A stretch of DNA of 64,000 bases from a virus. Taxonomy: Duplodnaviria; Caudoviricetes. Under the pieces are notes generated by a model. The model worked only from the letters and a program-made list of their open reading frames with translations, did not search any database and was not told the origin of the DNA. Positions 49,006 through 55,753 of the stretch are shown piece by piece. Within the stretch, counting starts at the first letter, position 1. Each line of letters begins with the position of its first letter. The stretch covers positions 32,001 through 96,000 of the IMG/VR virus record IMGVR_UViG_3300006851_000007. One strand, written 5' to 3'. The position numbers and the translations under genes are program-made.

Positions 49006-49425
49006 ATGAAGAAGTTGTTCGATAAGTGGGGTGTTCGGCACTTTAGCCCGGAGGAGGTCACTCTGCACAGACAATGGGGTAAGCACGTGCTTCCGCCAGA
49101 AAGTAAAAAAAATAACATACATAAAACCATTCTTCTCGCCGATACCATAAGAGAGGTTTGGGGTGACCCAGTCAGGTGTAACAGTGGATACAGGTCTCCT
49201 GAGTATAACAAGCTCGTGGGAGGGTCTGAAAAGAGTGAGCATGTTGAATTTAGAGCTATGGATTTATCACCCATAAACGGAGACATCAAGGGATTCTCTG
49301 AGGTTGTCAGAGCTGTAGTGGAGGGCGCTCGAACTGCCGGGTGGAATGTCGGTGTGGGGTTTTACAGTACGTTCTGCCACATTGATGTTGATGCGGAGGG
49401 TAAAAAAAAGAACAGGAGCTGGTAA
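49006..49425 (+). CDS. peptidase M15A (D-Ala-D-Ala Zn peptidase fold), endolysin candidate
   Basis: NSGYRSPEYNKLVGG..SEH..AMD..FCHID. Confidence 0.88.
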   Translation: MKKLFDKWGVRHFSPEEVTLHRQWGKHVLPPESKKNNIHKTILLADTIREVWGDPVRCNSGYRSPEYNKLVGGSEKSEHVEFRAMDLSPINGDIKGFSEVVRAVVEGARTAGWNVGVGFYSTFCHIDVDAEGKKKNRSW

Positions 49426-49443: not shown

Positions 49444-50616
49444 TTAGCCAGCCCTCTCGTATAATTCTTCCGACGGGTGATGGTATGCATCGGAAGCATT
49501 GTACGACTTGAGGTACTGGTCAAGACTTAGCATGACCATGGGCATGTTAAGCTCCCTTATAAAGTTCGGCACCGCCGAATTGCCCCAACAGGGGTTGCCC
49601 CCAATCCCTATATGGGGGTGTACGGCTGGAACTGTTTCGCCGTCCTCTCCCATGCTCGTGAATGATGTCTCAATATCCATACCAACAGAGTTGGTTCCCA
49701 CAATAACGTTGAATGTGCACGGCTTTATCAGCCACCCCCCCTCATCATCCTCTATAACCCTCTCTGGAATATCAAATCTCAGACGAAGGACTGAGGAGTA
49801 CTGATCTCTTCGTCGATAAAGAGCCCCTGTCAGTGTTATATCTTCCCACCTCAGATCATCTTTTGTTACCTTATAGTCATCTAAGATTAATTGTCGGGAG
49901 AGTAGAGTCTCCCTGTTTCTATATAATGACCCTAATCTGCCCCTTATCACATCTGCATAGTATGAAGCACCGCTTTGTGCGACAGGAACACTTAATCTCA
50001 TGTTCAAGTCATACGTTACGTGTGAAAGAGTTATGGATGGTATTCTGTTGAACCCCAGGTTAGACAGGGTGTCTACAATCTCTTGTAACTCCTCCTCCAT
50101 ATTCAAAGCAGTGGTGAGCAGCGATGATGAGGTTCTTAAATCCTCAATCCTATTGTCGATTGACCGCATTTCATCTCTTACCGACCTGCCGAACAGCTCA
50201 TTCGCATCTCCTGCGAATGCCATTATTTGATTAATAATGAATTGGTCTGGGTCCTCGACAAGGTTTGGAAACATTTCCTCCAAACGGTCTTCAACCCATG
50301 TCTTGATGGTTGGCCTGTAATTATTGACGAGCTCCTCATCGTCAATTTTGGCCAGAATGAAGAATGACCGATTGGCGGTCGTGCATGCCGGTATACCATC
50401 AATGATTAACACCGGCCCACCCTCAAGATCCCTCTTCATTGCTTTGGTGAAATGCCTGTCACCGTTTAGGAAAAGCGGGACACATACCATAACATCGGGA
50501 GTGATCCCCAATGATGTTACACCATCGCTGATAAACCTCGAGCTCCACCTCTCAAACCTCCTACGTACAGGGGATGTGTACGCTTGCAATTCTTCCATAA
50601 TAGCTGTTTCAAGCAT
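49444..50616 (-). CDS. E2/UBC-like protein B with long helical N-terminal region
   Basis: C-terminal VHPHIGIGGNPCWGN..SYNASDAYH, resembling the E2 HPN..C site; Ubl operon context. Confidence 0.6.
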   Translation of the reverse strand: MLETAIMEELQAYTSPVRRRFERWSSRFISDGVTSLGITPDVMVCVPLFLNGDRHFTKAMKRDLEGGPVLIIDGIPACTTANRSFFILAKIDDEELVNNYRPTIKTWVEDRLEEMFPNLVEDPDQFIINQIMAFAGDANELFGRSVRDEMRSIDNRIEDLRTSSSLLTTALNMEEELQEIVDTLSNLGFNRIPSITLSHVTYDLNMRLSVPVAQSGASYYADVIRGRLGSLYRNRETLLSRQLILDDYKVTKDDLRWEDITLTGALYRRRDQYSSVLRLRFDIPERVIEDDEGGWLIKPCTFNVIVGTNSVGMDIETSFTSMGEDGETVPAVHPHIGIGGNPCWGNSAVPNFIRELNMPMVMLSLDQYLKSYNASDAYHHPSEELYERAG

Positions 50617-51266
50617 TAGCCCTCCATACGAATATGGTCATTCGTTTTCGTGTCCATGATTGTGCAAAAGTCGTTCTTCTGCCCGTTCACATAATTAACA
50701 ACCCTGGTCGTAATCATGCTGCCGATGGTCATGGCGGTGGACATGGTTGTCCTGGCTGTACACGGAAGGTTTGCGGTCTCCCCTTCCAGTGACTCTTTGT
50801 ACGCAGATACCGCCCCTCGATCGGTCATGTCCACACAGTAGAGCATCATGGTTGTCAATCCCATTCGACCATCGATAAGAAGATCTACATTTGCATCATA
50901 CTCAATAGCATTGAAGATCTCTCTTCTGGCCTCTAGGGAGTCAACCCCCACGATGACAACCCTTCTGGCCTCCTTACCCCTCTCAAACTTCTCTCTAGCG
51001 ACCTCGATCTGCCCTTCTCCAAAATACGACAGAACATCATTGATGGAATCAACCTTGTGTTTGTTCTTGTGCCTATCCCCAAAGCTCTGATTTGACAGGT
51101 TGTGTTCCTCAACCACATCGTGATCATAAGCTTTGATATTCTTGAATCCTGTCTTAGATAGAGCAAGTATTGTCCAAGAGCCAATACCTCCAGCCCCAAT
51201 GACCGTGATGGGTAATCTTTTTGCTTGATCCGTGGGGATGTAGTCCTGTTGTCTAAGATATCTCAT
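50616..51266 (-). CDS. E1-like ThiF/MoeB-family adenylyltransferase
   Basis: RYLRQ, VIGAGGIG, DHDVVEEHNLSNQ, KVD, VGVDS..AR, IDGRMG, putative catalytic Cys in LPCTAR. Confidence 0.92.
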   Translation of the reverse strand: MRYLRQQDYIPTDQAKRLPITVIGAGGIGSWTILALSKTGFKNIKAYDHDVVEEHNLSNQSFGDRHKNKHKVDSINDVLSYFGEGQIEVAREKFERGKEARRVVIVGVDSLEARREIFNAIEYDANVDLLIDGRMGLTTMMLYCVDMTDRGAVSAYKESLEGETANLPCTARTTMSTAMTIGSMITTRVVNYVNGQKNDFCTIMDTKTNDHIRMEG

Positions 51267-51279
51267 TAGTTACTCCTTA

Positions 51280-52389
51280 TTATTCATAGATCCATGAATT
51301 AGACATGTAGAAATCATCAGAAAGATAGGCGTCCCAATAATAATGCGGAGGCTCCTCGTTGGCCGTCTCGATGTCTGCCAGGTCTACATCCACAAGAGTG
51401 CACGCATCCATAACCAGCTCCCACCTCCGCCTGTTTCGGACTGTTATGTCAAACTTTGACAGGCCTACACCCTCCAAGCACACATCTTCCTGGTAACCCC
51501 CTTCGGCCCAGGATGCCATATCTTTAATAAACTCAATCCTTTTGCTGAGGTTTCCATTTGAAGTCCCCCCCTCATCCTCAATGTCTTTCACTATTGAGGC
51601 GACTATATCCTCCTGGATCGATATACTTTCATCAAACTCCGTCTCAATTTCAGCAGACATGATCCAGTCAAAATCCTGGAGAGTGACTTCTTTTTTTTTA
51701 GAAGACGATCTCTTGTTCCTCCTGTTCCTCCTGGAGTGCAACCTCCCGTGCTTTCCTGCGGTCACTTTTCTCACCGCAGGCTTCTTCACGACCACCTTCT
51801 TTTTGTACTCGGCCTCACAGTGGCCTAGGGTATCAAACGCAATATCCAGCATCCTGATGACCTCTTTCTTCACCTCATCTCTCGGCAAGTCGTTAAACTT
51901 TTTGATGAGATCAATCACAGAGGTGATGCTTGTCAGCCCGTCAGGAACAATCTCAATTTCTATATTGTCCTGCTTGAGCTGATAGGGGGTGGAAAATGAG
52001 TCCACCCTCGTCCTGACTTCACCCTTTTTGTTGAACACGGACGAGACAAGGTAAGGATTCCCCCGGATGGTACGGATAGCCTCCTCGTCGGTAGCGGACC
52101 AGAACACATCCATATCAACATGTGAGTGCCACCACAGCCTCAGCTCTCCCAGCTCCTCCTCCCTGTCTGATAGCTCATCCATCAAATGAGCAGTCGCAAG
52201 GGCATCAATTTCTGTGGTTACAGAGGTCACCTCCTGTTCAAGGAGGAAAGCGTCAGTTACCACGAAATGGTCGTCAACAATCTTGACCGTTCCGTAGCCG
52301 CTTATTTCCTTGGGGCATAGTTGTACCCATTGTTGAATCTTCGAGTACGCTCTATCTGTATATCTGACAGGCTTCATTATTACTCCCAC
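51280..52389 (-). CDS. JAB/MPN+ (JAMM) metallo-isopeptidase with C-terminal extension
   Basis: EISGYG, then HSH-VDMDVFW-S-AT-D, an exact H-x-H-x7-S-x2-D match. Confidence 0.92.
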   Translation of the reverse strand: MGVIMKPVRYTDRAYSKIQQWVQLCPKEISGYGTVKIVDDHFVVTDAFLLEQEVTSVTTEIDALATAHLMDELSDREEELGELRLWWHSHVDMDVFWSATDEEAIRTIRGNPYLVSSVFNKKGEVRTRVDSFSTPYQLKQDNIEIEIVPDGLTSITSVIDLIKKFNDLPRDEVKKEVIRMLDIAFDTLGHCEAEYKKKVVVKKPAVRKVTAGKHGRLHSRRNRRNKRSSSKKKEVTLQDFDWIMSAEIETEFDESISIQEDIVASIVKDIEDEGGTSNGNLSKRIEFIKDMASWAEGGYQEDVCLEGVGLSKFDITVRNRRRWELVMDACTLVDVDLADIETANEEPPHYYWDAYLSDDFYMSNSWIYE

Positions 52390-53285
52390 TCAACCTGGTT
52401 CATTGACTCTGCTACTTCCAAATTTGTGTGGTAACTATCGTCCTCATTATATGAAGATGTTACCTGACTCAGGATAAACCCAATCCCCATAATATCGAAC
52501 CTGGTGACACATTCATTAAAGGCCCCACGCATATTCCCCAGGCACATTTCGGAATACCCAACCTCTGGGTGGTAGGTCGATGCGTGAGGATGAAATGCAC
52601 ACGATACTGCTGGACTCATCCCCTCTAACACCGGCGAGGCTGTCAGGTACCACACACCATCGGCGTTCAGCCCGACAGCATACTTAATGCTGTACTCATC
52701 ACCCTCGTACTCTGGTGGGCGGTATCGAACCACAAACTCCATTTCCGAACCGCGCATATTAAAATCCAGAATCGCACCACTATCGATAAGTTGTGCGACA
52801 CCTCTAAACATCCCTATAAAATCATCAGGAGCGACAAACTCACTCAAGTTTCTCACTCTTCTCTCTGCTTCGACCTTATAATCCTCAGTACGAAGGATAA
52901 GCCTCCTGAGGTCCCCTGCATTGAGGGCGATTAGAGTCTCATAGATACTATCCACACTCGATGACCCCTCACCGCCCGTGGGTGAGTCCTCTGTGCTGTC
53001 CATTAGGGTGTCTAGAATATCTTTGATTTTTGCGTAGAATGCTGGATGGGCATTATCCTCGTGATCCACATTAGCCAGCATTATCGTTTTCTCTTCACGT
53101 ATATAGAGAACCCCCTCGTCATCAGTGAACCGGTCATCGACGTTGGTAGGTCCCTCTACAGCCACCAACACCTCCCACTGATCCGTAGAAGGGTCGCTCG
53201 GAAAGTAGTTGGTTCTTAAAATCCTGCCACCTACAGGCTCCATGCGGGAGAGTAGGGCATCCTCGAGTCCTGGTACAATAAACAT
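52380..53285 (-). CDS. E2/UBC-like protein A
   Basis: FHPHAS..EMCLGN..SYNEDDSYH; C-terminus paralogous to 49444-50616. Confidence 0.6.
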   Translation of the reverse strand: MFIVPGLEDALLSRMEPVGGRILRTNYFPSDPSTDQWEVLVAVEGPTNVDDRFTDDEGVLYIREEKTIMLANVDHEDNAHPAFYAKIKDILDTLMDSTEDSPTGGEGSSSVDSIYETLIALNAGDLRRLILRTEDYKVEAERRVRNLSEFVAPDDFIGMFRGVAQLIDSGAILDFNMRGSEMEFVVRYRPPEYEGDEYSIKYAVGLNADGVWYLTASPVLEGMSPAVSCAFHPHASTYHPEVGYSEMCLGNMRGAFNECVTRFDIMGIGFILSQVTSSYNEDDSYHTNLEVAESMNQVEWE

Positions 53286-53296
53286 TCTAATCCTTT

Positions 53297-53321
53297 AAAA
53301 AAAACGGGCGCCGAAGCGCCC
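53297..53321 (-). terminator. intrinsic terminator between the Ubl gene and the enzyme genes
   Basis: Minus strand GGGCGC-TTCG-GCGCCC followed by G and eight T. Confidence 0.85.
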
Positions 53322-53349
53322 TAACCGCTACCCGTTAATCATCTACTAC

Positions 53350-53760
53350 TTACTGGCCACCCTCGACGTTCGGAGCCAGAATGATGTTATCCCCGTTTTG
53401 TAGAACCTCACCTAGGGAGGCCTCCCTACCGTTTAGAAAAACCCGAGACCCGTCCGGCTCGTGTCGGCCGAGGAGGTCCCCGAGGATCTCACCTCTTTGG
53501 AATACTACTTTCTCTTGCCCCCTCCCCAGGCGGGACAGGGTGGCCGTAAGCTCTTCTGATCCACCCTTCACGTTTGACACGATCGTGATCGTGTCTCCGT
53601 GTGCCACCTGAGCATCAAGGCTTACTTGCGCCCTCTCCCTGGTGACGATGCACCCTTCAGCTGAGAATCCGGACGCTCGGACTGCGTCCAGGACCGTGCT
53701 TCCCTCGGGGAGATTAACTGTGGTCGAGCCCTGTCCAATCTTTCTTACATCAAGCTTCAT
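53350..53760 (-). CDS. tandem ubiquitin-like (beta-grasp, ThiS/MoaD-like) precursor
   Basis: Two ~67-aa domains ending HGDTITIVSNVKGG and NGDNIILAPNVEGG-Q; GGAGG 6 nt before ATG 53760. Confidence 0.88.
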   Translation of the reverse strand: MKLDVRKIGQGSTTVNLPEGSTVLDAVRASGFSAEGCIVTRERAQVSLDAQVAHGDTITIVSNVKGGSEELTATLSRLGRGQEKVVFQRGEILGDLLGRHEPDGSRVFLNGREASLGEVLQNGDNIILAPNVEGGQ

Positions 53761-53815
53761 ATACATCCTCCATATGGATAAAATACGAGCAACACCCTAT
53801 GTGCCGCTCGTGAAT

Positions 53816-53845
53816 ATTATACCGTTATTTTTGATTAAATTTAGC
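53816..53845 (-). promoter_or_regulatory. GCTAAAT-class promoter of the Ubl operon
   Basis: GCTAAATTTAATCAAAAATAACGGTATAAT. Confidence 0.75.
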
Positions 53846-54499
53846 CTTCCCGGTGCCGTGCACCCTAAAGGCTACTACCGAGCTGCGATTCTTTCTAAAG
53901 CACAGCATGCATTCAGAGCATGAGATACCATGCGTCTGGTTAGGACAAACAACAAGCCTGGCATTTTTGCCATTAATATTAATCACGCCAGATTCAAAGT
54001 CTTCGTCGACCACGGTCGTGGCAGGCCACCCTGAGTTGACAGCATTTATGACCTCTTCTTTTGAATCGCACGAAGCATTCACGCAGAGGGATTTTTCGGC
54101 ATTCATCTTTTTAGAATCCAGCCTCTCCCAGGCGTGGGTGTATGTCCACCCTTTAAGGTCTGGTCTTTCTGAGTGTGCCTTTAGTACTGAGTCTATATAG
54201 TTAGTATCAATCATATCTCCAGGCTTCATAAAGTCGCCAGAAACATGATGTCTGAGCTTCTTACCTTCAGGCAAATTAGTAACATAGTCGTAAATAATGT
54301 CAGCATCACTCCTGCTATATTCTGACACTTTTGCGTGCATATTCACAAACGAGTATAAGGCGTAACAGCTCCTATTTTGCAGGTGTTCACAGGATTGTGG
54401 ACACGTGGGTCCAACCTCTCTGTATGTCGCTCTCACACCCCTACCGAGCTTGCGGTTGCCCGAATCCCTCTCAAGACATTTAATCATCTCTTCCTCCAA
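53825..54499 (-). CDS. Cys-rich hypothetical protein (possible Fe-S/metal-binding enzyme)
   Basis: CPQSC..CYA, RHHVSGDF, WTYTH, CPNQ..CSECMLC. Confidence 0.6.
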   Translation of the reverse strand: MEEEMIKCLERDSGNRKLGRGVRATYREVGPTCPQSCEHLQNRSCYALYSFVNMHAKVSEYSRSDADIIYDYVTNLPEGKKLRHHVSGDFMKPGDMIDTNYIDSVLKAHSERPDLKGWTYTHAWERLDSKKMNAEKSLCVNASCDSKEEVINAVNSGWPATTVVDEDFESGVININGKNARLVVCPNQTHGISCSECMLCFRKNRSSVVAFRVHGTGKAKFNQK

Positions 54500-55157: not shown

Positions 55158-55753
55158 ATGATAAACTCCTGCTGATAAGGTATCTTCCTCATCTCTCGCC
55201 TGAGGTTATCAAAATACTCAATCCAAAGCCACACCATCTCTTTTGACCATCCAAGGTCAATGAGATACTGCCCTCCTAACTTTTGGTAAATTTCCCACTC
55301 AATCTTCGAGGAGATTCTTGCTATAGCCCTGTCAATATCTTTTATGATGACTCTGACAAAGCCATCTCCCCTCCAATCGTCCTTTATGTCACATACCACT
55401 CCTCCCATTTTGGCAATATTGGCCATAGCCTTAGATAGCTCACCTTTAGAGAAAGTGTGGAATTTCACATGATCCCATTCACTAACCTCCACTGCTATAC
55501 CTCCGCTACCTTCAGGCTCCCATCCGTACTCCATCATAATTAATCTTGCTACAGTTCTCCCGTAGCTGTTAAGCCTGTAAAGCATAACTTCGTTTCCCAG
55601 GACATCCCTATGAATAGACTCGTCTAAGAATTGCCTGATGCTACCCATACCCCTTTTTCTGCGGTCAATTTTTAATTTGTGCCACCCTCCTTCCATAAAC
55701 AGGTTTACTATGACCTCTTTATAGGGTATGTTAGAAGTTAGCTTTTGACTCAT
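55145..55753 (-). CDS. hypothetical protein
   Basis: 202-aa ORF; TATAAT 4 nt upstream of ATG, possibly leaderless. Confidence 0.6.
   Translation of the reverse strand: MSQKLTSNIPYKEVIVNLFMEGGWHKLKIDRRKRGMGSIRQFLDESIHRDVLGNEVMLYRLNSYGRTVARLIMMEYGWEPEGSGGIAVEVSEWDHVKFHTFSKGELSKAMANIAKMGGVVCDIKDDWRGDGFVRVIIKDIDRAIARISSKIEWEIYQKLGGQYLIDLGWSKEMVWLWIEYFDNLRREMRKIPYQQEFIIWGS

Follow-up and report, generated by a model that had tools for sequence, protein, structure and literature searches.

A phage gene cassette predicted to encode a ubiquitin-like conjugation cascade with a divergent branch of conjugating enzymes

Whether a bacteriophage may encode a ubiquitin-like conjugation cascade of its own is the question raised by a locus of the IMG/VR virus record IMGVR_UViG_3300006851_000007, of which bases 32001 to 96000 (64,000 of 124,780 bp, hereafter the window) were analysed. 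On the minus strand of the window, from position 49444 to 53766, five contiguous open reading frames (ORFs) were found where a first-pass annotation had placed a tandem ubiquitin-like protein (Ubl), a candidate conjugating enzyme (E2a), a JAB peptidase, an activating enzyme (E1) and a second candidate conjugating enzyme (E2b). This gene content was upheld, both proteins with an HPH...C signature being tied by profile searches to the ubiquitin-conjugating (UBC) or E2 superfamily. The phage setting was likewise confirmed by the origin of the sequence in a virus record and by the presence in the window of genes for a DNA polymerase, a ribonucleotide reductase, a large terminase and a fused beta/beta' RNA polymerase. 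Owing to the gene identities, the profile link of the E2 candidates, the recurring gene order, the conserved Cys of the E1 and the processing-type ends of the Ubl, the five genes probably constitute a phage-borne ubiquitin-like conjugation cascade, the activity of which is predicted.

The two HPH proteins, E2a (301 residues, 52380..53285, minus strand) and E2b (390 residues, 49444..50616, minus strand), shared a C-terminal block of the form HPH...C-x-G-N...SYNxxDxY[H] (E value of 8e-4). In E2a, this block was part of a C-terminal UBC-like domain (residues ~150-301) carrying FHPH...CLGN and comprising H232-P-H234, the candidate catalytic Cys248 of CLGN (HPH-x13-C248) and S278-Y-N...D283.Y285; no fold was assigned to its N-terminal region. 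E2b consisted of a long helical N-terminal part followed by a C-terminal UBC-like domain with the motif VHPHIGIGGNPCWGN, in which the candidate Cys343 of CWGN was located at position +8 from HPH333-335 (HPH-x7-C), as in UBE2D2, and which also carried SYNASDAYH. As single sequences, neither protein matched any entry of Pfam, PHROGs, PADLOC or the Protein Data Bank (PDB), and the UQ_con and Prok-E2_D hidden Markov models (HMMs) had no match in the genome of the phage itself (at E<=10 for Prok-E2_D). When 5.8 billion proteins were searched by word index, E2b retrieved only itself, and an exhaustive phmmer search with E2a returned three proteins: a near-identical one, a true homolog (P0004) and a repeat protein (P0003) that was a spurious match. 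No match was obtained when the locus and E2b were compared with the phage collection by blastn and tblastn, nor was any related locus confirmed by searches with E1 alone or with a three-sequence E2 alignment. Relatives of the E2 candidates were reached through their better-conserved JAB and E1 neighbours.

Profiles built from these relatives were compared with the sequences of solved structures. A domain profile of 12 sequences yielded 47 matches at E<=10 among all PDB entries, and all of them were ubiquitin-conjugating enzymes (best E value of 0.006). With 46 sequences, 82 matches were obtained at E<=1, 58 of the 60 listed being E2 enzymes, with UBE2D2 as the best one (E value of 0.0028). In the profile alignments, HPH was superimposed on the HPN of the solved enzymes, the invariant Cys coincided with the catalytic Cys85, and SYNxxDxY fell on PNPDDP, a motif of E2 enzymes. 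Residues H, P, C and G were invariant across the 46 family members. The E2 assignment was made because the profile matched almost only solved E2 enzymes, with the HPH/HPN, Cys/Cys and SYNxxDxY/PNPxDP positions aligned. A leave-out HMM based on 10 relatives, from which the window sequences were excluded, ranked E2a first (48 bits, E value of 1.1e-14) and E2b second (33 bits, E value of 4.3e-10) among the 144 ORFs of the window, the next ORF having an E value of 0.43. Homologs of E2a (P0004 and that of locus L016) were found within the same gene order, and E2b was linked by BLASTP to the E2-like proteins of loci L021 (E value of 4.7e-6), L020 and L018. Near-canonical active-site strings were present in some relatives, among them HPHINPSGNICWG and indeed HPNVNESGGICWG. 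We conclude that E2a and E2b are divergent members of the UBC superfamily, with an intact catalytic-type Cys and a fold that is predicted by profile comparison.

Other affiliations were also considered for these two proteins. A relationship with clan CD or papain-like proteases was dropped, given that both the spacing from His to Cys (8-16 residues) and the list of PDB matches fit E2 enzymes. Membership in Prok-E2_D was rejected as well, with hhalign probabilities of 1-4% and an HMM rank test in which E2a came 14th and E2b 32nd. In the ESM Atlas, Prok-E2_D was the nearest annotated cluster for both.

The putative tag is encoded by the first gene of the cassette (53350..53766, minus strand), an ORF of 138 codons from which a protein of 136 residues is probably produced, starting at an ATG at position 53760 that is preceded by the ribosome-binding site GGAGG. 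Its score with Pfam ThiS was 33 bits, above the cut-off of 22.5 (E value of 9.2e-8). Its two halves were homologous to each other (BLASTP E value of 1e-4) and ended with NVKGG and NVEGG, respectively, a single capping Gln following the second repeat. Both repeats could be aligned from end to end with the single Ubls found in related operons, and the GG was in register in eight related Ubls. By its sequence, the protein is a beta-grasp modifier whose domains end with Gly-Gly, and the release of a GG C-terminus is predicted. Among 56 Ubl genes of related loci, five encoded di-Ubls with GG after both repeats and one cap residue, and most of the single Ubls ended with GG plus one or two residues. 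Since most of the relatives' Ubls carry such cap residues after their GG, processing by the JAB peptidase is argued to be a built-in step.

The candidate for this processing step, encoded at 51280..52389 (minus strand), contained EISGYG...HSHVDMDVFWSATD, an exact match to the E...H-x-H-x7-S-x2-D pattern of the JAMM zinc site. Its best match among solved structures was 6fjv, the Rpn11-like deubiquitinase of Caldiarchaeum (E value of 2.4e-4), and its score against Pfam Prok-JAB was 17.8 bits, under the cut-off of 25. The metallopeptidase domain covered residues ~1-160 and was followed by a long C-terminal extension that included a very basic stretch. Cleavage after each GG of the di-Ubl is predicted for this enzyme, which possibly acts in deconjugation too. 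Conservation within the cassette was highest for this protein, with identities of 56-73% versus 27-35% for the E2 candidates. A search with the JAB domain yielded 25 homologs. Contigs were retrieved for ten JAB proteins, nine of them detected by this search and the tenth being P0127 of contig L004. Each of the ten JAB genes was immediately followed by a ThiF gene or a fragment of one; in seven of these ten contigs, a larger HPH...C[LWY]G protein was encoded directly or closely upstream of JAB.

The E1 (216 residues, 50616..51266, minus strand) consisted of a single ThiF domain, with a Pfam ThiF score of 62.6 bits against a cut-off of 28.1 (E value of 3.9e-17). It carried GAGGIGS, the Asp of VDSLEAR and a crossover-loop Cys in LPCTAR. 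This Cys was aligned with those of RCTAK, PCTMK and LCSYK in the relatives aligned, the exception being the E1 of a Xanthomonas phage, where a Cys was found two residues away. Such conservation is consistent with a predicted thioester-forming E1. In the usual N-L-x-R-Q motif, the Arg was replaced by Asn, and N, G, C, S or T occupied this position throughout the phage E1 clade that was aligned (the window, L016-L023, L001, L002 and L006). The Arg is retained in MoeB, ThiF and Uba enzymes, as well as in the E1 proteins of bacterial Prok-E2_D operons. In MoeB-type enzymes, it contacts the ATP phosphates.

Analysis of the distribution of the cassette was based on an E1-clade profile, which detected at least 334 relatives in IMG/VR. 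Far from being singular, the locus proved to be one member of a large phage family. The survey of gene neighbourhoods that the first-pass annotation had proposed was carried out on the best 80 of these loci, and the cassette was found to recur: an E2-like gene was present on the same strand in 65 of the 80, and Ubl-E2-JAB-E1 was the commonest layout (34/80). The layout of the window, with a second E2 after E1, was seen once (L097), as was a tandem E2-E2 arrangement (L028), and some relatives kept only Ubl-JAB-E1 or JAB-E1. In relatives, the cassette adjoined genes for D5-type primase, SNF2 helicase, PolA, UDG or topoisomerase. No E1 match was found in the nearest cultured relatives of the phage, namely Vibrio phages D69, D181 and D148 and Salmonella phage Arash. 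In the literature searched, which was thin in subscription journals, neither a phage operon of the type Ubl-E2-JAB-E1 nor a ThiF/JAB module of crAss phages was found to be described.

Cys-rich tails following the UBC-like domain were observed in 20 of 67 E2-like ORFs of relatives (about 30%; loci L026-L105), and also in L020:5922-7004, L018:1532-2731 and L021:5739-7001. The E2a and E2b proteins of the window had no such tails. These extensions are probably zinc-binding and may supply an E3-like (ubiquitin ligase-like) or substrate-binding function.

Among known systems, a close resemblance in layout was noted with the type I/II Bil (bacterial ISG15-like) antiphage operons, whose gene order bilA-bilB-bilC-bilD corresponds to Ubl-E2-JAB-E1 (PMC10557695). 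As in Bil, the window cassette has separate Ubl, E2, JAB and E1 genes in the same order, with a Cys-based E1 and E2, and Ubls with more than one beta-grasp domain also occur among Bil systems (PMC11601603). However, Bil is found in bacterial defence islands, whereas the window cassette is encoded by a phage. BilD displays an IAD-AAD-CYS architecture, that is, inactive and active adenylation domains and a mobile Cys domain (PMC11601596); the E1 of the window, with its single adenylation domain, is therefore not of the BilD type. The cassette further differs by its two E2 candidates, which form a separate unannotated branch with the HPH...C[WL]GN signature and large N-terminal domains, and by the GG that ends both Ubl repeats. 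Judged by sequence comparison, the cassette thus resembles Bil in its parts, gene order and Cys chemistry and lies outside Bil by its E1 architecture and E2 family.

Partial likenesses were found with several other systems. UBC enzymes such as UBE2D2 share with the window family the HP[N/H]-x7/8-Cys site and the downstream PNPxDP-like motif, but the Asn of HPN is replaced by His in the window family, its Cys is followed by G-N and not by L-D-I-L, and there is no score against Pfam UQ_con. The head-to-tail arrangement of the Ubl, capped by one extra residue, is that of polyubiquitin precursors, and the best solved relative of the JAB protein belongs to the Caldiarchaeum ubiquitin operon (PMC6043591). 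Unlike eukaryotic and archaeal systems, the window cassette has no RING E3, and its Ubl sequence is ThiS-like rather than ubiquitin-like. With type II CBASS Cap2/Cap3 and with Bub operons, the cassette has in common the combination of E1, E2 and peptidase chemistry on a C-terminal Gly, and the Rossmann region of its E1 scored best against the PADLOC Cap2 'E1-E2' models. However, E1 and E2 are encoded by separate genes in the window, in contrast to the E2-E1 fusion of type II CBASS, and no PADLOC model for a CD-NTase was matched among the six operon-region proteins scanned. The oxyesters of Bub are formed on Ser and Tyr, and its protease belongs to DUF6527 (PMC11601596); the window family has instead an invariant Cys in its E2 candidates and a conserved Cys in E1, and no DUF6527 match was found with Pfam. 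Prok-E2_D operons (PF14460) share the E2-JAB-E1 order and a Cys followed by x-G-[SNT], but no significant profile match was obtained with them; Prok-E2_D proteins keep the N of HPN, have no HPH, and are accompanied by an E1 that keeps the Arg of N-x-G-R-Q. Of five loci with bacterial or archaeal Prok-E2_D genes that were inspected (L012-L015 and L010), four displayed the arrangement [~375-residue protein]-E2_D-JAB-E1; in the archaeal one (L010), a JAMM motif was not seen.

On the basis of these data, a working model can be proposed for the cassette. Cleavage by JAB after each Gly-Gly would release two different Ubl monomers and remove the capping Gln. The E1 would then adenylate the exposed C-terminal Gly and load the Ubl onto its loop Cys, from which the Ubl would be handed to Cys248 of E2a or Cys343 of E2b, and the E2 proteins would attach it to lysines of target proteins. 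Targets would be picked by the N-terminal domains of the two E2 proteins, which differ from and are unrelated to each other, so that each E2 would also serve as E3. The five genes had been assumed to lie behind one promoter, an assumption that was not supported: a strong intrinsic terminator (GGGCGC-TTCG-GCGCCC followed by T8; 53306..53321, minus strand, read from 53321 to 53306) is located between the Ubl gene and E2a, the first of the four genes for enzymes. This terminator probably acts as an attenuator by which the tag would be held in excess over the enzymes.

Several observations weigh against such a cascade. None of the window proteins reached the threshold of the Pfam UQ_con and Prok-E2 models, and the E values of the PDB matches were modest (about 0.003), so that the case rests on the near-exclusive list of E2 matches and on the motif register. 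For the HPH..C proteins, of which the first-pass annotation expected a UBC fold, membership in the UBC superfamily was supported by profiles, and structure prediction gave no confirmation of the fold: AlphaFold2, run on alignments of three to four sequences, gave models with a predicted local distance difference test (pLDDT) score of 39 for E2a and 36 for E2b, and these low-confidence models were uninformative in Foldseek. The elements in them followed the order helix, four strands, HPH, Cys and three helices, which would fit a UBC fold, albeit at too low a confidence. Adenylation by the E1 is not certain, because its clade has lost the Arg of N-L-x-R-Q, and the E1 has no ubiquitin-fold domain for recruiting an E2. 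No recognisable E3 was found, as had been remarked from the outset, and the virus record is only about 75% complete according to CheckV.

Alternatively, the same genes could belong to a sulfur carrier system, in which the Ubl would be adenylated and thiocarboxylated by the E1 in the manner of ThiS, MoaD or TtuB, for a cofactor or for thio-modification of tRNA or DNA, with JAB only maturing the carrier. The sole Pfam match of the Ubl over threshold is indeed ThiS, the E1 is reduced to one domain of the MoeB/ThiF kind, and E1 relatives are annotated as 'thiamine biosynthesis protein' in phage records. However, two UBC-family proteins with an invariant Cys would be superfluous for a sulfur relay, the layout of the di-Ubl precursor is typical of conjugated tags, and the earlier remark that sulfur-transfer enzymes are missing nearby was extended to the whole 124.8-kb record, where no TtuA/NcsA-type PP-loop protein, MoaE, ThiG or rhodanese was found. 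We regard this explanation as highly improbable. An unlikely, though less remote, explanation is that of a phage-carried exclusion system with the chemistry of Bil, directed at structural proteins of competing phages and disabling co-infecting rivals. It would agree with the gene order shared with Bil, with the attachment of the Bil tag to a phage tail protein (PMC11601596) and with the patchy occurrence of the cassette, illustrated by the cultured Vibrio and Salmonella phages cited above and typical of accessory conflict genes; it is opposed by the single-domain E1, by the lack of any match between PADLOC defence models and the E2, Ubl or JAB proteins, and by the great frequency of the cassette in apparently lytic large phages, among replication genes.

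The cassette could also counteract host defence, JAB stripping host Ubl from phage proteins while the phage Ubl, E1 and E2 proteins would be decoys or competitors of a Ubl-based defence of the host. The outstanding conservation of JAB and the relatives reduced to Ubl-JAB-E1 or JAB-E1 are in line with this possibility, but a lone deubiquitinase would suffice for it, and the maintenance of an E2 with intact Cys in 65 of the 80 loci, together with the conserved Cys of E1, argues for active conjugation. Interference of this kind thus appears rather improbable, although not to the same degree as a sulfur carrier. For the conjugation cascade itself, we favour a role in the takeover of the infected cell or in early/middle reprogramming of the host or of the phage itself over one in tail assembly, because the cassettes of relatives sit among early and replication genes.

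More distant versions of the cassette were detected in Crassvirales (DAC15, crAss001 and many others), in Flavobacterium phages of the FpV4 type and in some contigs of metagenome-assembled genomes (MAGs). They take the form of a triad, [HSH...C-L/I-G protein]-JAB-E1, adjoining UDG and primase genes, as in Bacteroides phage DAC15 (L002:3302-6675) and Flavobacterium phage FpV4 (L001:3599-6669). The first protein of the triad (~400 residues, HSH-x15-19-C-L/I-G) comes from a family that numbers at least 655 members and has no Pfam match, the E1 of the triad is the one annotated as 'thiamine biosynthesis protein', and no Ubl ending with GG was seen within 12 kb. An earlier HMM of this crAss family did not pick out the E2 candidates of the window; the comparison of the 46-sequence profile with the family gave an hhalign probability of 55% (E value of 1.2e-4). 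This deep-profile match suggests homology with the crAss family, short of proof. In the Xanthomonas jumbo phage PhiXhv-12 (L006:3256-6630), an 892-residue HPH-x14-CLG protein related to E2a (BLASTP E value of 1e-4) is encoded directly before E1; its N- and C-termini are very Cys-rich, and no JAMM motif was present within the protein itself. In a contig binned with a Saccharibacteria MAG (L008:2509-7639), a gene for an AAA+ ATPase (Pfam AAA, E value of 4.7e-21) directly precedes an E2-like (YHP...CLG)-JAB-E1 set. Such a pairing of a Ubl-type set with a putative unfoldase is reminiscent of proteasome-type systems.

In the window, the minus-strand block runs on upstream of the cassette to position 55753, through a gene (53825-54499) located directly upstream of Ubl and encoding a Cys-rich protein of the DUF7227/GP88 family (E value of 7.6e-37). 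This gene was not seen adjoining the cassette in the related loci inspected. Between it and the start of Ubl (53785-53822), a TATAAT box is followed by a hairpin with an 11-bp stem and a short T-run, a combination that may be a cassette-boundary element. No reverse transcriptase, as would accompany a retron, was found in the virus record. On the other side, a Peptidase_M15_3 (endolysin-like) gene (49006-49425) is the last gene of the structural block on the plus strand and is convergent with E2b, from which it is separated by 18 bp. The first-pass annotation had described a location between tail tube and tail chaperone genes. The supposed tail tube is a 220-residue protein that matched only a 'structural protein' of Salmonella phage Arash identified by mass spectrometry and hypothetical proteins of Vibrio phages, which supports homology to a structural protein and not its identity as a tube; no family match was found for the supposed chaperone, nor for an 893-residue 'sheath' protein. 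As the same cassette adjoins replication genes in related phages, this placement does not appear meaningful, and the position of the cassette beside the structural block is probably incidental in this phage.

Conjugation of Ubls in prokaryotes has so far been known as a bacterial antiphage defence (Bil, type II CBASS and probably Bub), and here the predicted chemistry is the same but appears on the phage side, in a cassette that occurs in hundreds of phage genomes at least and has an E2 branch that is matched by no database model tried. The 46-sequence E2 profile could be used directly for annotating such genes. It is conceivable, albeit with considerable reserve, that large lytic phages, probably including a diverged form in gut Crassvirales, run their own Ubl conjugation, in which an unrecognised branch of E2 enzymes would double as substrate-selecting ligases through variable N-terminal domains and, in about 30% of cases, Cys-rich tails. 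In the present phage, two E2 proteins and two Ubls would give up to four tag-enzyme combinations marking host or phage proteins during infection. If the cascade is active, phages would rewrite the proteome of the infected cell by tagging, in the way that eukaryotic viruses use host ubiquitin, and a function would be gained for the probable relatives in Crassvirales, so far a 'thiamine biosynthesis protein' and hypothetical proteins, whose genes are conserved in the phages that are most abundant in the human gut.

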